Below, piece after piece: positions 8,421 through 32,316 of a stretch of DNA of 64,000 nt. The first letter of the stretch is position 1; the number at the start of each line of letters is the position of its first letter. The DNA comes from Planctomycetota bacterium (lineage in GTDB: Bacteria > Planctomycetota > UBA11346): positions 13,765 through 77,764 of the forward strand of contig JBBRLJ010000028.1 in NCBI GenBank assembly GCA_038231435.1, read 5' to 3'. The position numbers and the translations under genes were made by a program. Below the pieces are notes generated by a model. It was not told the DNA's origin, made no database searches, and was given only the letters and a program-made list of their open reading frames with translations.

Positions 8421-8508
8421 TCCGGACAGAAAATCCCAGGACAGACATCTCCCAGAAAAATCACAGAAATCCCAAAAATCCCCGAAAATCCCAGGACAGA
8501 CATCTCCC
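8421..8508. repeat. Direct repeat AAAATCCCAGGACAGACATCTCCC x2 (left flank of RAYT-like element)
   Basis: Identical 24-mers at 8430-8453 and 8485-8508, with AAATCC(C) subrepeats between them. Confidence 0.85.
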
Positions 8509-8678
8509 TGACCCACCACCAAACTACTCACCCCTCAGCCTCCCTGAGGCATGAACTTCCGGCTCAGCTCTGCTCTGCCGCAGCATTCGAACTCGACAAC
8601 GACCCTCTCTGATCCACCAGATCGCCAGAATTTTGAGCTCGGGCGACGGCGATCCGATCCGTCATGTCCTGATCTCCG

Positions 8679-9719
8679 CTAACCGACCGCCGCTTCCCCA
8701 TCTGTCGGATGCACTCGTGAGCGGTCAACGATCCATTTCACCCCGCGCCGCACCGCTTCCTTCGCTCGCGCCAGGGCACAGCCGATCGCCGACCCTCCGA
8801 AGCGGCCACCCATCGACATCGCGTCCCTCCATCGCCCGAGATCGAGTTCCAGGCGGGCAAGGATCGGCGACAGGTACGTCGGGATCGCTCCTCGTTTCCC
8901 GATCCGCACGATCCGCCCCGTCTGGTCGACCAATTCCAGGTAGTCGTCGGTCGAGAGTGGGCACGGGCACAGCCGGCTCGTCTTGTCGGACCAGGGCGTG
9001 CACGCCTCGAGCGGAGCCAGCCATGATTGGACCAGCGGTGGATCTGCTGGCGTCGGGATCGCTCCGCTATCGACGAGACGCGCGCCGGCCTTCGCCATCT
9101 GACGCTCCTCGATGCGTCGCTGAATGCTCGTCAACTCGCTCGATTCGGGACGATCGGCTTGCCGCGCTCGGATCAGATTGAGATCCACGTATGCCATGCA
9201 GGCGATCACCGCCGCCTGATCGAGCAGCGACACCGACGTGAAGCGCCCTTCCCAGAAATGGCCGGTGCAACGGTCCTCGCGATTCGCCCGCCGGGCGATG
9301 CGCTCCTTCATCACCTTCATGAACCACGACAGACTCGACAGGCGGGCCCGATGCTCAGAGACCCATTCCGCATCCGCCGCCTTGCCGTCGAGCCAGCGCA
9401 GATCCGGTGGCTTCGGATTCCCGTCGTCGTCCTTCAGCGGGAACATGACCGCCCAGCGCTCGGCCACCTCGCGACCGGACCACCTCGCGGCGCGGTCGGG
9501 ATGGACCTTCATCACCAGGTGGAAGTGATTCGACATCACCGCGTAGGCGAAGATATCGACGGCGAATACCGTCGCCTGCTCGCGAACGGCTGTTTCGATC
9601 CAATCTCGACGATGCGCCCATTGATCACTGCAGAGGAAGGAGCGACGGACGCAGCGGCTGATGACGTGATAGCAGCCAGGTTGCGTCTGGTCGATCAGAT
9701 GCGAGCGGGCAGTCGTCAT
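8679..9719 (-). mobile_element. REP-associated tyrosine (HUH/Y1) transposase, RAYT-like
   Basis: YHVISRCVRR, YAVMSNHFHLV (HUH), GHFWEGRF, ACMAYVDLN. Confidence 0.9.
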
Positions 9720-9763
9720 GAGCACGGGATACGGGATGGATTATGAGATTGGCGTGAGAACAC

Positions 9764-9781
9764 ATGCCTGTCCTAGGATTT
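9764..9781. repeat. Inverted copy of the RAYT flank motif (ATGCCTGTCCTAGGATTT)
   Basis: Its reverse complement matches AAATCCCAGGACAGACAT at 16 of 18 positions. Confidence 0.7.
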
Positions 9782-10730
9782 GTGTGCCGAGCGATTCATC
9801 GCCGTTCAGGACGGGCAGGTGAAGGTGACGACGATCCAGAAGTACCACTGCCACATTGGCTACTGGTTCACGGTCATCACACCGGGGTCGTCGCCGGCGA
9901 GCCTGACAGCCGAGAGCTTGCAGCTGGCCAGGAATGCACTGGTCAAGCGCATGTCGCCCGTGACGGCGAACTGCGCGCTCTCGACCCTCAAGCGGATCCT
10001 GAACTTCGCCTTCTTGGAGGGCTGGCTGACCTCGTCACCGTGGAAGCGGGTAAAGAGCCTCCCAGAGCCCGACTTCACGTCGAGCTGGTGGACGCCGGAA
10101 GAGGTGGCGGTGGCCCTGCGAGTCGCAGGGCAAAACCAACACCAGCCCACGGCCACCCTGATGATCGTGCTCGGCTGCATGCTGGGGCTGCGCAAGGATG
10201 AGATGGTCAACCTCCGCTGGCAGGACCTGCTGCTGGACCGGCAGGACGAGGCGACTGGAGAGCCACGGCCGGTCTGCCATATCCGCTGTGATGCGGAGTG
10301 GCGGCCCAAGTCGGGGAAGGCGCGAGACCTCCCGATCCCACCGCAGGCACGTGGCATCCTGCTTCCGCACCGCAAGGCTTCCGGCTACGTCCTAGTGGAG
10401 GAGCGGCGGGTGGCGAAGCGGGGCGGCACCAAACGGGTGTACCGATATGACCCGGACCGGGTTTGGGATCGGATCCGGTCCAAGTGCATCGCTGCAGGCG
10501 CGAAGCGCATCCGTTTCCACGACATGCGGCATTCGTATGCGTCCATCTTGCTCGACCAAGGCTTCAGTGCCGAGAAGGTCGCCCGATGGCTCGGGCACTC
10601 GGACACGCGCATGGTCTTCGGGGTCTATGGGCATCTGCTCGCATACGACGAGCAGATTGAGGGCGTAAAGTTCACGCGCAGCGCGCAGCCTGACGACAAG
10701 CATCTCCTGCGCTTCCCGACTCGCAGCTGA
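9780..10730 (+). pseudogene. Tyrosine recombinase/phage-type integrase, probably 5'-truncated
   Basis: GLRKDE (R), KSGK (K), FHDMRHSYAS (HxxR), LGHS, VY; no ribosome-binding site, and the frame starts at the RAYT flank repeat; points toward the 3' end of tRNA-Asp. Confidence 0.75.
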
Positions 10731-11110: not shown

Positions 11111-11424
11111 CTTTACTGGAGGGTTGCGGATTATGACTGTGGCATGTGCATGGCAAGGGGAATAGAGTTTCAACATGCTGTGTGGTTCGGGATTAGAGAT
11201 GGGCTGGTCGAGCTGGCTCCTTGCGGGGCCGCTTCTCCTAGGATCGGGATGAAGGCCCTCAATCACCAGGCGTAGATATCACCAGGCGTAGGGCGTAAAG
11301 AGTAACTCTCCTTTCACACCGCTTTCACACAAAGCCTTCAGATTCAGGCGCAAACCAGCAGCCACACAGGGCCGAGACCGCATGGGATCCATGTCAGCAG
11401 CATCGCACCGGACGGAGCCCACCC

Positions 11425-22674: not shown

Positions 22675-22738
22675 GAGACGGAAGAGGGAAGAGGATATAG
22701 AGGAGGCGCGGTTTCTGTGGGGCTCTCCTCGAATTCGT

Positions 22739-22807
22739 GATCGTAGCGAACGTGCTCGCAGTCAAGGCCGATCGGCGGGGCGCCGATCGCCGCGGGGGAA
22801 CCGCGGT
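22739..22807 (+). repeat. Structured element copy D (5' half only)
   Basis: GATCGTAGCGAACGT..TCAAGGC, a hairpin with a GGG loop, then CCGCGGGGGAACCGCGGT; aligns with copy A at 31089. Confidence 0.7.
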
Positions 22808-22828
22808 TCGCAGCTCGAATCTCTGCAT
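22808..22828 (-). pseudogene. 7-codon remnant of a four-helix-bundle gene (MQRFELR)
   Basis: AAGGAG ribosome-binding site plus ATG directly after element C, as in the intact genes (MSRFERL, MTKIHELR). Confidence 0.5.
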
Positions 22829-22851
22829 GTCGTTCTCCTTGCGCCCCACCG

Positions 22852-22939
22852 CGCGATCGTCCTCGGGGTCAAGGCTGGCCGCCCCGGCCACCGCGGCCCC
22901 CGCGGCCCGGCCTTGATGCCGAGGACGATCGCGACAATC
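22852..22939 (-). repeat. Structured element copy C
   Basis: GATTGTCGCGATCGTCCTCGG..CAAGGC..CCGCGG..CCGCGGTGGCCGGGGCGGCCAGCCTTGA..GACGATCGCG; closely matches copy B. Confidence 0.85.
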
Positions 22940-23168
22940 ACGCCACCGGGGAGAACGCCCACAAAACACATGCCGTCCAGCTGTCCTCGAGCCCTCGAGC
23001 TTGCTCACCTTCGAGCCTTCGAGACTTCACCTTCGACGTCCGGCGTCTGCCCCCCCCCGCTCTCGCCTACCGACGACAACCAACAACGGACATTTCATCC
23101 CAGTCCAAAAAACAAACACGCGCGAGGCAGAGCCCCGCGCGTGTCCACCGTTCACTTCGACGCGTCGA

Positions 23169-25010
23169 CTACGGAGCGGGAGCGGGAGCCGGCACCGGTG
23201 CCCCTTCCACCCCTCCCATCACCTTCACCAACTCCACCTCGAACACCAACAGCGCATTCGCCGGGATCTTCGGCGGCGATCCCGCCTCTCCATATCCCAG
23301 CTCGGGCTTGATGTAGACTTTGAACTTGTCGCCTTCCTTCATCAGCTGCAGCGCCTCGGTCCAACCCTTGATCACCTGGGTGACGCCGAATTCGGCGGGG
23401 GCGTCCTTCGAGGCGTCGAACTCGGTGCCGTCGACGAGCGTGCCCTTGTAGCGGACCTGCACGCGGTCGCTCGGCGCGGGCTTCTTGCCGCCCTCGGGGC
23501 CCGATGAGACGATCTCGTACTGCAGCCCGCTGGCGGTGGTCTTCACCTCGGGGCGCTTGCCGTTGTCGGCGAGCCACTGGCTGTTGGTCTTGCCGGTGTT
23601 GCCGGCCAAGGGTTCGGGCGGCTTGGCCTCGAGCAGCTTGTCCAGCGCTGGGCGCAGCTGCTTGAAGGATTCATCGCTGATGACGTAGTAGTATTTGATG
23701 AAGCGATCCTGGGCCTTGGCGGCCCGCTCGCGGCCGGTGGGCTTCTTCTTCTTCGGCTCCTCGGGCTTGTCGTCGGGCTTCTTCGCCGCCTTGTCCTCGG
23801 CGGCCTTCTTCGCGTCCTCGTCGGTGGCCTCATCGTAGCTGACGAAGACGATCATGTAGCGGCTGTGGCCGGCGGCCTCGGGCTTCTTGCCGTCCTTCTT
23901 ATCATCCGCCTTGGGATCAGTCTTGGGATCAGTCTTGGCATCGTCCTTCTTGTCGGCCTTCGCTTCCGCATCGACGGTGATGTCGTCCTCGGGCGAGCTG
24001 TTGCCGAAGATCAGGTTGTAACGCAGGCCGTCCTTGCTGCCGATGTCCAGACGGCCCTCGGCGCCGATCACGGCCATGTTCTGGCCTTGGATGTTGAGCA
24101 CCGGCGAGGTCTTGTCGATTTCGCCAGGCTTCGAGAAGTAGAAGCCTTTGGTCGACATCTCGCCGAGATCGGCGCTGGACTTCAGGCGGAACTGCCGAAC
24201 TCCGGCGAGCCTGATCGAGGTCAAGGCGCTCACGATGCTCGACGCCGTGCCCTGGGCCAGGCGCTTGTCCGCGGGGAGCGCGGCGGGCGTCGTCCAGGTC
24301 TGGTCGAGCGCGCGCACCAATGGGGTCTCGGAACGCATCACCGGGTGGCCGCCGTCGGCCTCGGTGACGATCGAGTAGTCGGCCACGGTGAGGAAGCGCA
24401 CGTCCTCGCTCTTCACCTTGAGCGGGTCCACCTCGACGTAGTCGACGAATTTGGTGCTGAGATCCGGCTTGAGCTTGGCGGTATAGACCTGCTTCTCGGC
24501 GGCATCGCGAACGAAATACATGCTATCGCCCTGTTCCGCGCGCTTGCCGATGATCACGTCGACCATGGTCTTGCCGGTGACGTCCTGCATGGTCACGCGT
24601 TTGCCGCGACCGGATTTCTGCGACAGGTCGGGATCGAGGGGATCGATGACGCCGAGTTCCTCGAACTTCTTCGGGTCGTCGGTGACCGGCCGCGACTTGA
24701 CCACGCCGAGGAAGTTGGCGGTGGCCTTGCCGACGGTGTCTTTGGTGTCGGCGGGGTAATCGTAGCGGCTCGGGATCACCCAGGCTCCGTTCGGCCCCGA
24801 GCGCTTGACCTCGATGAGCTTCGGGACGTTCAGGGTGTCGTCCCACTCGACCACGCGCAGATCGGCGACGTGCTCGGGGACGTCCTTGGCTCCAAATACC
24901 GCCTCGACGGTGGCGGTGTCCTTCTTGGTGGAACCGCCGGAATCCCCCTTCCAGGCCGGATAGGCGGTGACCAGCGCGAGGACGCCGAGGACGATGGGCA
25001 GTGGTCTCAT
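23169..25010 (-). CDS. DUF4340-domain protein fused to an FKBP-type PPIase (Mip/FkpA-like)
   Basis: N-terminal TM, WVIPSRYDYPAD (DUF4340-like); C-terminal TASGLQY..VRYKGTLVDGTEFD..VIKGWTEALQLM..LGYG..IPANALLVFEVEL. Confidence 0.85.
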   Translation of the reverse strand: MRPLPIVLGVLALVTAYPAWKGDSGGSTKKDTATVEAVFGAKDVPEHVADLRVVEWDDTLNVPKLIEVKRSGPNGAWVIPSRYDYPADTKDTVGKATANFLGVVKSRPVTDDPKKFEELGVIDPLDPDLSQKSGRGKRVTMQDVTGKTMVDVIIGKRAEQGDSMYFVRDAAEKQVYTAKLKPDLSTKFVDYVEVDPLKVKSEDVRFLTVADYSIVTEADGGHPVMRSETPLVRALDQTWTTPAALPADKRLAQGTASSIVSALTSIRLAGVRQFRLKSSADLGEMSTKGFYFSKPGEIDKTSPVLNIQGQNMAVIGAEGRLDIGSKDGLRYNLIFGNSSPEDDITVDAEAKADKKDDAKTDPKTDPKADDKKDGKKPEAAGHSRYMIVFVSYDEATDEDAKKAAEDKAAKKPDDKPEEPKKKKPTGRERAAKAQDRFIKYYYVISDESFKQLRPALDKLLEAKPPEPLAGNTGKTNSQWLADNGKRPEVKTTASGLQYEIVSSGPEGGKKPAPSDRVQVRYKGTLVDGTEFDASKDAPAEFGVTQVIKGWTEALQLMKEGDKFKVYIKPELGYGEAGSPPKIPANALLVFEVELVKVMGGVEGAPVPAPAPAP

Positions 25011-25074
25011 GGGATGTCGCTTTCGGTCTGGCTGTACCTGATGACTGGTGCCGTCGTGAGGATGGAGTGTGCCA

Positions 25075-27906
25075 TCACGCCACGCGCTTGCGTGCGGCCG
25101 GCACGTGCGAGCGCTCGCCCACCAGGCGCTTGGTCCATACGATCACCACCAGCAGCGCGAGCAGGACGCTGGGGATGCCGATGGCGAGAGCGCTGACGTA
25201 GCGCTCGACCCCGGCGATGGCTTGGCGCTGATTCGATTTCGCCGCCGCCTCGTTCTTCTCGCGCATCTGATTGACGCGGCTGATCTCGATCTCGACGTTG
25301 CGACTGCCGATCTCGTTGGCGGTGGCGCGCTTGTCCGCCTTGGCGGCATCGTCGTCCTCGCTCTCCTCGATCTTCTGCATCTGACGCTGGAAATCGAGGT
25401 TGATGCGCGCGATCTGCTTCTCGGCGTCCTCCTCGTCCTGCTCGGTCGCCTTGCGCAGCTCGTCCTGGGTCTTGCGGTATTCCTCCTCGATACGCTTGAG
25501 CGGCCGCCGCTCGGGGCGGCGCGTGCGCAGGTCGAGGTAGTCCTTGTCGTTGAAGAGTTGGTCGACGACGTTGCCGGCGAACTGCACGTTGCGCAGGTTC
25601 GAGAGGAAGCGCTTGTCGTCGTCCGAGAACTGCCCGCCCTGGTTTCGGTACAGCTGGAAGAAGATCTCGCTGACGAAGTCGGAGTCGGCGACCAGGATCA
25701 CGTGCACGGGCTTCGGGCTGGGGACTCCGGGCTTGCGCTCCGGCGCGGGCGGGCCGGATTCGCCGGCCTTGGCTTCGGGCGCCGACTTGGGATCGGGCTC
25801 CGGGAAGGCCGCAGCTATGGTGCCGGTGATCTCGACCGCGTAGGTCGGCGGATTCTGCTGATCGCCGGTCGAACGGATCTTGGGATCGGGATTCAGGTTC
25901 ATGCGCCCCGTGTAATCGAAGGTCGCCACGTCCTGCAGCGACACCATGCCCCACGGATAGCCGGCCATGCCCTTGATCAGCGGCGTCACCGTCAGGTCCG
26001 GACGCTTGTCGGCTGCGATGCCTATCGAGCCGGCGAACGGCAGCAGCAGCGAGGTGATGCCGGCCGAGGCTCCGGTCTCACCGTCCTTGCCCTTGACCCG
26101 TTCGCGGTCGATCCACACGAAGGCGCGTGGCATCTGCTTGAGCTTGCGGAACTGATGGCTCGGAATGTAGTCCGACCACACCATCTGGTTCTCGTCGTAG
26201 TCGAGACCGAGGGCTTTCCACAGCGGCTTGATGTCGCCTTTCTTCGGGGCGCTCGCGTCGTCGTTGCCCATGTTGCCATAGGGGCTCTGGTTTGGGCTCT
26301 TCTTCGGCTTGCTTGGGATGAGCTCGGCCTTCTGACTCATCAGCGGCAGCGGATCCTCGAGCAACAGCGTTGGGCGGCCGTTCCAGATGTAATCGTGCAG
26401 GTGCTCGAGCTGGGGCTGGGTGAGGCTCGACGGCTGCGGCACCACCAGCACCTCGACGTCGGCGGCGACGTCGCTGTCGAGGTTCACCGGACGGATCTCG
26501 TACTGCTTCTTCCATTCCTTGACGATCTCCCACTCGGGGACCATGCCGCCGGACTGGAAGTCGAAGCTGCCGTTCATCTCGAGATCGGTCTGGGCGAGTC
26601 CGAGCACGTGCTTCTTGCCCGCGACCACGGCGCGCACCGCGCGCACTACTTCGTATTCGACCGACAGGCCGGGATCGAAGTACTCGATGACCTGGGTCTT
26701 GCCGGCGCACGAGATCGCGGCACCGCAGAACACGTCCTTCTGCTCGCGGCCCGCGGCGTCGTCGCTGAGCACCTGGCGGGTCTTCATGCCGAACTCGCGG
26801 GTGGCCTCGGAACCTGCGGGATCGAGCGCGTCCTCGGGATGCTTGACCTTGAGCTTGATGCGGGTGCTCGCGCGCTCGACGGCGCTGAGCTTGTCCTCGA
26901 CCTCCTTGGCCTTGAGCTGCATGTCGGCGGGCAGCTCCTTGCTGATGTAAGCAGTGATGGTCACCGGCTCGTCGATCGATTTCAGCAGCACCAGGCTGGT
27001 CTTGCTCAGCGACGACTGGCCCTCGACGCTGACATCGGCGTAAGCGCCGAACTTGCCGACGATGAGCGCGACGTTGACGGCCAGGATCAGTCCGAACGCC
27101 AGGCTGAGTACCTGCGCCCACACCCTCGCACCGCTGCCCGGACGCCAGCGGCGGCTGGCGAGCGCGAGCACCGAGGCGCCGAGGCCTCCACCGATGACCG
27201 CGAGCGCGACCACGACGTGGCCGAGCGGCACCACGCCGCGGTTGAACGGATCGAACCACGATCCGAGCGAGGCGAAGAGCATCGCGAAGCCGCACAGCAC
27301 CATGCCGAGCACGAAGGCGATCGTCGGCAGGCTGACGATGACGCTGGCGAACAGGCCGAGCGACGCGAAGGCCATGCCCGCGAGCCACCAGCCGACGTAG
27401 TTCGCGACCACCAGGCCGGCGTCGGGATCGCCGAGCACGGCCAGGGCGGCGACGTTGGACAGGCTGCACAGCAGCGCGATGGTGAAGTAGCTGCACACCG
27501 CGAGGAACTTGCCGAGCAGCGCGTCCAGGATGGAAAGCGGCAGCGTCAGCAGCAGCTCCTCGGTGCCCTGATCGCGCTCGGTGGCCCACGCGCCCATGGC
27601 CAGGGCGGGCAGCAGCACCACCAGCAGCCACGGCATGATCGGTAGCAGCGGCCCGAGGTCCGAGATGTTGCGTGCGTAGAATTTATCGCTCTGGAAGAAG
27701 TAGATCGAGGCCGCGGTCGCGAGCACGAAGGCGAGGATGAAGATGTAGCCGAGCGGATTGCCGAGCAGGCTGGAGAGCTGGCGGCGCCAGACGGCGATGA
27801 TGCCGGTGAGGTGCAGATGGCCGCCGCGCTGCGGGGCTATCCCGGTGCCTGCTGCGGGACCCATCGATGACGAGCCGGGCTGGCCGGCGCTGGCGACGGT
27901 GCTCAT
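25075..27906 (-). CDS. GldF-like ABC permease fused to a GldG-like (ABC_transp_aux) periplasmic domain
   Basis: ERDQGTEELLLTLP..LLGKF permease motif; SLSKTS..LKSIDEPVTITAY, EYEV, VLVVPQP, LVADSDF, DYLDLR. Confidence 0.85.
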   Translation of the reverse strand: MSTVASAGQPGSSSMGPAAGTGIAPQRGGHLHLTGIIAVWRRQLSSLLGNPLGYIFILAFVLATAASIYFFQSDKFYARNISDLGPLLPIMPWLLVVLLPALAMGAWATERDQGTEELLLTLPLSILDALLGKFLAVCSYFTIALLCSLSNVAALAVLGDPDAGLVVANYVGWWLAGMAFASLGLFASVIVSLPTIAFVLGMVLCGFAMLFASLGSWFDPFNRGVVPLGHVVVALAVIGGGLGASVLALASRRWRPGSGARVWAQVLSLAFGLILAVNVALIVGKFGAYADVSVEGQSSLSKTSLVLLKSIDEPVTITAYISKELPADMQLKAKEVEDKLSAVERASTRIKLKVKHPEDALDPAGSEATREFGMKTRQVLSDDAAGREQKDVFCGAAISCAGKTQVIEYFDPGLSVEYEVVRAVRAVVAGKKHVLGLAQTDLEMNGSFDFQSGGMVPEWEIVKEWKKQYEIRPVNLDSDVAADVEVLVVPQPSSLTQPQLEHLHDYIWNGRPTLLLEDPLPLMSQKAELIPSKPKKSPNQSPYGNMGNDDASAPKKGDIKPLWKALGLDYDENQMVWSDYIPSHQFRKLKQMPRAFVWIDRERVKGKDGETGASAGITSLLLPFAGSIGIAADKRPDLTVTPLIKGMAGYPWGMVSLQDVATFDYTGRMNLNPDPKIRSTGDQQNPPTYAVEITGTIAAAFPEPDPKSAPEAKAGESGPPAPERKPGVPSPKPVHVILVADSDFVSEIFFQLYRNQGGQFSDDDKRFLSNLRNVQFAGNVVDQLFNDKDYLDLRTRRPERRPLKRIEEEYRKTQDELRKATEQDEEDAEKQIARINLDFQRQMQKIEESEDDDAAKADKRATANEIGSRNVEIEISRVNQMREKNEAAAKSNQRQAIAGVERYVSALAIGIPSVLLALLVVIVWTKRLVGERSHVPAARKRVA

Positions 27907-28661
27907 GCCGCGACTCCCTTCGTGAGTTCGCGGAAGCGCGCCTCGATCGATTTGCCGCCGGCGAGCTCGGCCGGCGTGCCCTGGAACACCAGGCGGCCCT
28001 CGCTCACCAGGATGACGCGGTCGGCCATCGCCTCTACCTCTTGCAGGATGTGGGTGCTCAGCAGCACGGTCTTGTCCTTCGCGAGCGAGCGCACCAGTTC
28101 GCGCACCAGCTGGATCTGGTTGGGATCGAGGCCCGAGGTCGGCTCGTCGAGGATCAGCACCTTGGGATCGTGCAGGATCGCCTGGGCGAGGCCGAGGCGC
28201 TGGCGGAAGCCCTTCGACAGCTTGCGCACCGGCTTGTGCCAGACCTCCTCGATGCGGCACGAGGCGGCGACGCGATCGAGCGCGGTCTTGAGCGGCGTGC
28301 CCGACATGCCGCGCACCTCGCCGGCGAAGCGCAGGTAGCTGGCGGGCGTCATGTCTGGATAGAGCGGACCATTCTCGGGGAGGTAGCCGAGCAGATGGCT
28401 GGCCTCGATGCGGTGCGTGTCCATGTCGTAGCCGGCGATCAGCGCGCGCCCTGCCGATGGGGCCAGGAAGCCGGTGAGGATCTTCATGGTCGTCGACTTG
28501 CCCGCGCCATTGGGCCCGAGGAAGGCGGTGACCGAACCCTGAGGAACGCTGAAACTGATGTTCTGGATGGCGGTGAATTCGCCGTAGTACTTGCACAGCC
28601 CCTCGGCCTGGATGAGCCCGGGGGTGACGTGTACGGTGGGCGCGGTCGCGGAATCCGGCAT
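27903..28661 (-). CDS. ABC transporter ATP-binding protein (GldA-like)
   Basis: GPNGAGKST, LSKGFRQR, ILDEPTSGLDPNQ, LSTH. Confidence 0.92.
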   Translation of the reverse strand: MPDSATAPTVHVTPGLIQAEGLCKYYGEFTAIQNISFSVPQGSVTAFLGPNGAGKSTTMKILTGFLAPSAGRALIAGYDMDTHRIEASHLLGYLPENGPLYPDMTPASYLRFAGEVRGMSGTPLKTALDRVAASCRIEEVWHKPVRKLSKGFRQRLGLAQAILHDPKVLILDEPTSGLDPNQIQLVRELVRSLAKDKTVLLSTHILQEVEAMADRVILVSEGRLVFQGTPAELAGGKSIEARFRELTKGVAA

Positions 28662-31023: not shown

Positions 31024-31088
31024 GGAGGGGATAAGGGGAAGGAGCGGAGAGCGGAGAGCGGAGTTTACTACCGTTTCTCGCTTCACTC

Positions 31089-31192
31089 GATTGTCGCGAT
31101 CGTCCAGGCTGGCAAGGTCGGCGGCCGGGGCGGCCTTGCCGCGGAGGAACCGCGGTGCCGGGGCGGCAACCTTGACAGCCTGGACGATCGCG
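31089..31192 (+). repeat. Structured element copy A (candidate ncRNA/cis-element)
   Basis: Perfect 17-bp outer stem CGCGATCGTCCAGGCTG/CAGCCTGGACGATCGCG plus CAAGGT/ACCTTG, enclosing three small hairpins. Confidence 0.85.
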
Positions 31193-31216
31193 TGCCGGGG
31201 GTGAAGGAGAAACATC

Positions 31217-31570
31217 ATGAGCAGATTCGAACGACTTCTCATCTGGCAGCGGGCGCGCGAGGTGCGGATCCTGTTCCGCGACTGCACCGCCACCATGCGC
31301 GACGCAGTTCTCAAGGATCAGATCCGCCGCGCAGCGCTGTCGGTCATGGCGAACATCGCCGAAGGCAGCGAGCGCGCCACGAACGCCGATTTTCGCCGAT
31401 TCCTGGCAATGGCGCACGGTTCGTGCGGCGAACTACGCAGCCACCTGGTCGTAGCGCTGGATGACCACCTGGTCGATGACGCTTTCTATCTCCACCTCAA
31501 CACCAAGCTCATCGAGCTCGGCAAGATGATCGCCGGCTTCATGAAGGCGCTCGCGCGAGGCGGCGGGTGA
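31217..31570 (+). CDS. Four-helix-bundle protein (23S rRNA IVP / TIGR02436-like)
   Basis: FERLLIWQRA..LKDQIRRAALSVMANIAEG..FRRFLAMAHGSCGELRSHL. Confidence 0.93.
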   Translation: MSRFERLLIWQRAREVRILFRDCTATMRDAVLKDQIRRAALSVMANIAEGSERATNADFRRFLAMAHGSCGELRSHLVVALDDHLVDDAFYLHLNTKLIELGKMIAGFMKALARGGG

Positions 31571-31980: not shown

Positions 31981-32003
31981 CTTCTGTCTCCTTGCGCACA
32001 ACC

Positions 32004-32092
32004 CGCGATGGGCATCGGGGTCAAGGCTGGCCGCCCCGGCCACCGCGGTTCCTCCGCGGCATGGCCTTGACGCCGATGACGATCGCGACAAT
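32004..32092 (-). repeat. Structured element copy B
   Basis: ATTGTCGCGATCGTCATCGGCGTCAAGGC..CCGCGGAGGAACCGCGG-TGGCCGGGGCGGCCA-GCCTTGACCCCGATG..ATCGCG. Confidence 0.85.
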
Positions 32093-32158
32093 GGGAGCTA
32101 GGAGACTGAGAATTGGGATAATCCGGAGATGGATGGATCCGCATGCCGATCTACCGCG

Positions 32159-32316
32159 ATCCGACATCCGGGATCCGACGTCCGCTATCCGCCCTCCGCT
32201 GTCCGCTGTCCGCTGACAACTGACAACCGACAGCGGACAGCATCGAAGGCGAGAAGGTAAGAAGGTAAGAAGGTAAGAAGGTAAGAAGGTAAGAAGGTAA
32301 GAAGGCGCGAAGGCCT
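32159..32316. repeat. Heptamer array ((A/G)TCCG..., GACA...) followed by octamer array GAAGGTAA x6
   Basis: About 12 heptamers at 32159-32242; six perfect GAAGGTAA at 32253-32300 plus three GAAGGC variants. Confidence 0.9.

Follow-up and report, generated by a model that had tools for sequence, protein, structure and literature searches.

Single-stranded DNA (ssDNA) promoters have been described from the leading regions of plasmids, mostly enterobacterial ones as far as the accessible parts of the literature go, and the family presented here would add chromosomal genes and several further phyla to their known range. In IncF and IncI1 leading regions three classes are distinguished in the available portions of the sources: class 1 (Frpo/ssi), class 2 (Frpo3/ssp2, situated before klcA/ardB and ardA) and class 3 (PMC12672017; PMC9849209; PMC11541004). 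In plasmid pESBL the starts of the ssDNA promoters of klcA, ardA and the methylase operon were mapped by RACE (Wen et al., PMC12672017, accessible part). By our own reading of the box positions, the template-strand fold of these three has TTGCAT-15-TAAGAT/TAACGT in its 3′ arm, and a 7-bp stem lies beside the −10 box in the pESBL control folds; at the class 1 sites of this plasmid a pattern search of 260 nt detected no such boxes.

The element described here resembles the Frpo/ssi promoters, as these are presented in the accessible text, in its long template-strand fold-back, in −35 and −10 boxes that lie on the arm far from the gene, in its short spacer, in a stem that ends beside the −10 box and in GNA tips; its copies that are not linked to four-helix-bundle (4HB) genes also have the same kinds of cargo. 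Unlike Frpo classes 1–3, so far as those sources describe them, it is smaller (full length about 130–160 nt), chromosomal and multicopy, and stands in convergent pairs before a 4HB gene. No likeness in sequence was detected: model R1 has no match in the pESBL leading region and, by eye, the element core is absent from the Frpo sequences (5 known, 13 candidate) in the available text of supplement 7 of PMC11541004. Judged from its sequence, the element most likely works like a Frpo-type promoter yet lies outside the described sequence classes. We consider it quite probable that it is a distinct-class candidate fold-back ssDNA promoter, unrelated in sequence to Frpo classes 1–3 and acquired once by a single clade of 4HB genes in the chromosome, most of them in convergent pairs. 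No description of the element or of a 4HB leader was found in the literature covered, which included two 2026 genome-language-model preprints and stopped short of subscription journals and bioRxiv supplements, where a prior description is possible.

The window, that is the whole analysed stretch of 64,000 nucleotides of a Planctomycetota genome (GCA_038231435.1, contig JBBRLJ010000028.1), had been given four copies by a sequence-only reading, A (31089–31192, + strand), B (32004–32092, − strand), C (22852–22939, − strand) and the half copy D (22739–22807, + strand), and all four are present there. These limits hold for the core; the true extent is longer by 15–20 nt on each side, where an outer helix, P1, takes in the Shine-Dalgarno sequence (SD). 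The features of the two loci are as follows.

22722–22813, + strand: element D, 5′ part only, the rest lost to deletion
22740–22745 and 22760–22765, − strand: D −10 box TACGAT and −35 box TTGACT
22814–22828, − strand: first five codons of the deleted 4HB gene of C, fused to D
22831–22957, − strand: element C, full extent
22913–22938, + strand: C −35 box TTGATG (22913–22918), 14 nt, −10 box GACAAT (22933–22938)
31042–31062, + strand: 7-nt tandem repeats outside element A, seen by sequence inspection
31073–31213, + strand: element A, full extent, a fold-back whose functional fold is proposed to form on the − strand (the gene's template strand)
31090–31095, − strand: A −10 box GACAAT, 14 nt from the −35 box; the ATTGT leader is on the other strand
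31110–31115, − strand: A −35 box TTGCCA
31201–31213, + strand: SD-bearing arm of outer helix P1 of A, pairing with 31073–31086
about 31203–31205, + strand: predicted transcription start of A
31217–31570, + strand: four-helix-bundle gene 1 (PF05635/TIGR02436), 117 aa
31633–31980, − strand: four-helix-bundle gene 2 (PF05635/TIGR02436), 115 aa, convergent with gene 1
31986–32106, − strand: element B, full extent; the proposed functional fold is on the + strand
32067–32092, + strand: B −35 box TTGACG (32067–32072), 14 nt, −10 box GACAAT (32087–32092)
32187–32314, strand not assigned: tandem arrays of 7- and 8-nt units, outside element B

The shared fold claimed for the four copies is borne out for A, B and C (RNA z −7.5, −4.1 and −6.9 against dinucleotide shuffles) and fails for D alone (z −1.3). 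The CCGCGG and GCCG-GGG-CGGC hairpins are both there, the middle of the stem varies in sequence between copies, and an SD and ATG follow A, B and C at a distance of about 10–12 nt. In the long outer stem the right arm of B, CCCATCGCG, is imperfect and has two mismatches, and the ATTGT leader is not common to all copies, D having ATCGT. D is indeed a half copy because a deletion fused it to the fifth codon of C's gene; the C/D locus is the A/B arrangement after this deletion, with both 4HB genes lost, and full D-type copies are known on five other contigs. The extra GGG-loop hairpin, which had been taken to define left and right ends, marks neither, since the partners in a pair are not of fixed types (D+C, A+B, D-like+D-like, A+D) and the D-type copy C13 has no such hairpin. 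Nor are the copies limited to four: the genome holds 24 (nhmmer, E<1e-8). A further model match on C26 (E 7e-4) lies inside a coding region and was discarded as chance.

The proposed tie to 4HB genes is confirmed across the genome, where 22 of the 24 copies lie directly ahead of a 4HB (PF05635) gene, its remnant or a contig end, the other two being fused halves. Pfam detects 17 4HB genes, 16 with an element copy directly upstream and a seventeenth that runs off its contig; the remaining 8 copies are 2 at contig edges, 4 before deleted or decayed genes and the 2 fused 5′ halves. Eighteen copies form 9 convergent pairs (the fused locus being one), and 3 are true singles. The genes are under purifying selection (dN/dS 0.08–0.40 in 21 pairs from 12 genes), and the two cargo proteins of the window score 93.9 and 102 bits against PF05635 (cut-off 33.8). 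They are members of the family of 23S rRNA intervening-sequence proteins and Avd (PF05635, TIGR02436), related to the pentamer PDB 2GSC and with a weak match to the Avd profile; unlike in the described 23S and Avd settings, the cargo is not in rRNA and no diversity-generating retroelement (DGR) or reverse transcriptase was found in the genome. A DGR was rejected on 0 matches to PF00078 reverse transcriptases in this 88%-complete genome. PADLOC matched no defence system. Carriage of the module by plasmids or phages was likewise rejected, 4HB being found on 8 of 72,556 plasmids and the element core pattern in 1 viral contig.

Of 48 genomes of the class, the covariance model detects the element in 23, and 30 hold 4HB genes; copy number per genome runs from 0 to dozens. 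A strict pattern finds the element in 4 of the family's 15 genomes and in none of 285 others in the phylum. Where named, the public records that hold 4HB-linked copies are mostly from Planctomycetota, and when the motif was searched first, 37 of 39 open reading frames (ORFs) behind it were 4HB. In a quick tree of 125 proteins the 96 with a leader cluster as a single group (SH-aLRT 86, not starred), and 4HB genes of the same family that lack one lie outside it. The group holds two long-branch leaderless intruders, and three rows inside it labelled leaderless turn out to be one truncated leader, one leader missed by the pattern and one apparent loss. In other lineages 4HB genes have no leader and carry only 7-nt repeats, in arrays directly upstream. 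One genome of another family (G032) has 52 4HB matches, many of which contain in-frame stops whose positions they share, and no leader was detected at the one locus examined in it.

That the motif is structured, conserved and covarying, as had been proposed from four copies, holds in 49 aligned sequences: the 22-pair stem is 89.6% paired, 13 of the 22 pairs show changes in both partners, and covariation scores 0.350 versus 0.082 in shuffled and 0.045–0.076 in slid alignments, with the reservation that kinship inflates such counts. P1 pairs the SD region with a co-varying 5′ sequence, GTTTCTC/GAGAAAC in A, GTCTCCT/AGGAGAC in B and CGTTCTCC/GGAGAACG in C. Such covarying anti-SD sequences speak for a cis-regulatory RNA leader, in which read-through mRNA would fold, P1 would hide the SD, and the 4HB pentamer, a relative of Avd, or another factor would bind the conserved internal loop and switch translation. 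The sense strand also carries a near-invariant U-G wobble (54 of 59), which becomes A-C on the template strand and counts against an ssDNA promoter. An RNA form probably exists, since a co-oriented host gene lies upstream of 17 of the 24 copies; the other 7 have none, which counts against the leader. The weak Avd profile match of the 4HB protein would fit it, as Avd binds structured RNA in DGRs (bioRxiv 10.1101/2023.10.23.563531, accessible part). Read on the opposite strand, however, the conserved bases are −35 and −10 boxes, and the element's core also stands before unrelated conjugative-element genes (radC, DUF932, ardC) with no 4HB gene, where in the folds inspected the SD is outside the outer helix. 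RNA autoregulation by 4HB is therefore the weaker reading of the sequence, and we regard the RNA leader as unlikely.

The tips of the hairpins bear on the same choice. They are triloops: in 108 distinct copies C-GNA-G occurs 94 times on the template strand and 6 times on the sense strand, and GNRA/UNCG tetraloops are nearly absent from sense-strand tips, which argues against an RNA leader. Loops of the C-GNA-G type stabilise DNA. As DNA, the template strand upstream of the gene folds back in A, B and C with z −8 to −10.7, the − strand of A reaching −56.6 kcal/mol (z −10.7). Folding energy was tried as a means of choosing the strand and proved uninformative: among 71 copies, 39 fold more stably on the template strand when treated as DNA and 46 on the sense strand when treated as RNA, and the DNA fold of B is stronger on the + strand (−50.1 vs −40.5 on the − strand), yet in copy A it is the sense strand that folds more stably as DNA. 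This lack of a consistent preference is a point against an ssDNA promoter. Between the two options of an RNA or an ssDNA motif left open by the sequence-only reading, ssDNA is nonetheless judged the better.

The conserved bases speak for the ssDNA promoter. All 24 copies of the genome carry TT(G/T)ACN-14 nt-(T/G)AnnnT on the template strand of the gene, in the left arm, and in sets gathered without requiring either base A-11 and T-7 are kept in 48 of 48 copies and in 71 and 70 of 73. In 108 distinct copies, some of them retrieved by a pattern that needs A and T but leaves the partner base free, positions −13 to −15 are paired in 101–102, −12 in 89 and −8 to −10 in 47–65; A-11 is Watson-Crick paired in 0 of 103 and −7 in 6. 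The SD starts between −2 and +5 from the predicted transcription start in all 72 copies that have one. The right arm carries TTGAC, and a −10 box toward the gene is seen there in just 5 of the 108.

In duplex DNA the boxes point away from the gene and are of fair consensus, which would suit a conventional duplex promoter that fires outward, in antisense, into the gene upstream or the tandem repeats, the hairpin then having some other role. A standard scan for promoters with 16–18-nt spacers found 0 sites between 30900 and 32400. The predicted host promoters peak at a spacer of 15 nt (38 sites, vs 4, 14 and 9 at 14, 16 and 17), and tRNA promoters of the host have 15–16 (for instance window positions 11125–11155, − strand, upstream of tRNA-Val); a few promoters with a 14-nt spacer are likely, as 2 of the 4 sites look genuine. 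The modal spacer is 17 in species with start-site data (PMC8407463, available portion), and the 15-nt peak may point to an unusual sigma-70 in this class. Because host promoters peak at 15, the 14 nt of one arm and the 15 nt of the bulged arm in canonical copies are near the host optimum; it still weighs against an ssDNA promoter that 14 nt is very short and that A, B and C lack the spacer bulge of the canonical form. An outward duplex promoter leaves without explanation why the other arm avoids pairing with A-11 and T-7 while their neighbours are paired, and also why copies in Proteobacteria have 15-nt spacers where 17 is modal, as the accessible part of PMC8407463 gives it, and we hold this alternative to be very improbable.

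A model built solely from 4HB-linked copies scores 44–60 bits on copies from other phyla, and a scan of species genomes gave at least 133 loci. Among the matches listed, 40 have a 14-nt spacer and a 4HB gene, 34 have 15 nt and no 4HB, 13 have 14 nt and no 4HB call, and 46 have no AnnnT at either spacing. Behind the non-4HB copies, 37 of the 41 ORFs listed were examined: DUF932 (10), RadC (6), ArdC (5), antirestriction (3), methylase (1), ParB (1), a sigma factor (1) and 10 without a match, mostly short truncated reads. Thirty-six non-4HB copies listed have a 15-nt spacer in 33 cases, a paired −12 in 32 and a mispaired −11 in 35. In the folds inspected, their P1 lies 5′ of the SD, which stays outside it; P1 is therefore not just a clamp on the SD. 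One of these copies has matches on 261 plasmids, of which 236 are conjugative, with the best matches listed at radC. In one record this copy stands ahead of radC and faces the relaxase, within an element of the order integrase-radC-DUF932-parB-repA-relaxase; we take this element to be of the Tn4371 type. The radC copy is thus leading-region-like in gene content and in orientation to the relaxase, whereas the modules of the window sit among ordinary housekeeping genes, in no recognisable conjugative element. These neighbours, together with 0 ArdC and 0 reverse transcriptases found and only a weak coupling-protein match in the 88%-complete genome, count against an ssDNA promoter, as do the low score of the plasmid radC copy (14.7 bits) and the blank result of the model on the pESBL leading region. 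In a scan of metagenomes 48 of 122 matches have 15 nt, 11 have 14 nt and 63 neither, with cargo that by eye is of the same kinds.

A third set extends the series. In its 99 distinct copies listed the stem is two pairs longer, reaching to C (81), with a 16-nt spacer; an A follows in 83 of 99 and is unpaired in 95, and T-7 is present in just 8. The named copies listed are, by eye, 19 from Alphaproteobacteria, 8 from Acidobacteriota and 1 from an unclassified proteobacterium. Most alphaproteobacterial promoters have no T-7 (PMC8407463, in the part available), and the 16-nt spacer without T-7 fits that promoter type. The stem thus differs in length among the groups with 14-, 15- and 16-nt spacers, yet in each it ends at an unpaired A. 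Most third-set copies have no ORF behind them, which is a point against an ssDNA promoter. Gene-less alphaproteobacterial copies (L188, L202, L238, L318 and similar) have a long near-perfect hairpin where the transcript would begin, and may possibly be primer or small-RNA units. At L270, L341 and L367 the element stands before a sigma-70-family gene and not an antirestriction gene.

The expected absence of a known family agrees with five Rfam scans without a relevant match (radC, STAXI, HEARO and TwoAYGGAY included), which yielded over the element only sub-threshold miRNA-type hairpins. The radC motif (RF01754) and STAXI (RF01728) are, in the accessible part of PMC2864571, likewise structured motifs before radC or ssDNA-handling genes of mobile elements; neither matches 20 loci at E≤0.1 or the 28-kb radC region at gathering score, and the two radC rows in the available supplement differ from the element in sequence. 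TwoAYGGAY and REP-like doublets, as described in the accessible text (bioRxiv 10.64898/2026.09.22.753630), share with it multicopy intergenic fold-backs, doublets and flanking short tandem repeats; unlike them, the element has no AYGGAY loops or Rfam match, its doublets enclose two genes and its promoter boxes are conserved.

REP/RAYT repeats carry a tag of the GTAG type at the foot of the hairpin and are linked to a Y1 transposase. They were rejected here, as no GTAG-type tag occurs in the 24 copies and the single Y1-type gene is not adjacent. The features of the element that recall mobile DNA might also belong to a folded-DNA signal for mobility or second-strand priming (the end of a peel-and-paste element, or an ssi-type primer site) in place of a gene promoter. 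Its copy number varies from genome to genome, deletions through the cargo are frequent, and gene-less copies occur in other phyla. Empty sites are seen in congeners: in one, the phosphoesterase–FKBP gap contains nothing but some 90 nt of inverted heptamer repeats, and in another no module lies between the nitroreductase and xth genes. The same neighbour is kept at only 1 of 3 phosphoesterase-gene loci, and the xth loci differ or hit a contig edge; among the rows listed (four DNA contig sets of one study) no clean excision joint was found. Moreover, ssDNA promoters also prime second-strand synthesis (bioRxiv 10.64898/2026.01.09.698686, accessible portion). Against mobility or priming stand the lack of a transposase that travels with the element, the sole Y1-type gene being at least 13 kb away, and the SD and ATG, whose spacing from the predicted start is short and fixed. 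We find it quite unlikely as the whole explanation, and the priming and promoter roles are not mutually exclusive.

If the element is an ssDNA promoter, the template strand, once single-stranded, would fold so that the 3′ arm with the −35 and −10 boxes serves as the non-template strand. The −35 box and the spacer would be duplex, pairing would stop at −12, A-11 and T-7 would be kept mispaired and P1 would form the downstream duplex, a pairing pattern that would mimic an open complex. The host sigma-70 RNA polymerase would start about 6–7 nt past the −10 box, just 5′ of the SD, and read the 4HB gene. In the duplex chromosome the gene is presumably silent, because the boxes face away, the spacer is below the host preference and any read-through RNA would bury the SD in P1. 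One 4HB clade may have captured the element from a conjugative element, and in a convergent pair one gene would fire whichever strand is single, be it in DNA uptake, transfer or repair gaps; cruciform extrusion is a further possible trigger. The genome has an intact ComEC reading frame, so that uptake might be the trigger; since ComEC is widespread, its presence is no proof. That the 4HB protein aids the establishment or spread of the module after DNA entry is a guess.

We advance tentatively, as a possibility rather than an expectation, the broader proposal of a cross-phylum class of ssDNA promoters whose spacer and −7 base track the host sigma factor, which a selfish family of chromosomal genes took over from conjugative elements and in which convergent pairs switch on an Avd-like protein when either strand is single, for example in natural transformation. 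If true, this would amount to zygotic induction of chromosomal genes and would give a first handle on stand-alone four-helix-bundle proteins. The long-unexplained 4HB (S23/IVS) family would become testable, as expression would be expected with single-stranded DNA and not in steady growth. The hundreds of natural variants would show which bases a fold-back promoter needs, and the element may serve as a marker by which the leading region of a conjugative element is recognised in sequence.

Several smaller observations accompany these results. A 7–8-nt tandem array lies within 400 nt of 11 of the 24 copies, versus 2.3% of random positions. Genome-wide there are 124 clusters of such arrays, often as inverted pairs between genes (also L001–L028 and L086–L090), and 113 of them have no element copy. 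Two decayed remnants were noted, a lone 5′ half between repeat arrays (G000:C25:46330–46480) and two 5′ halves joined head to head into one palindrome (C14:82010–82185). At 8679–10730 the window also holds a gene for a Y1/RAYT-like transposase (348 aa, − strand) together with a tyrosine integrase beside tRNA-Asp/Val, with short direct repeats near 8430–8510; this small island is apparently unrelated to the element. At 23169–28661 lies a Gld-like ABC transporter operon, which ends in a DUF4340-like/FKBP fusion of which Pfam confirms the FKBP part only.
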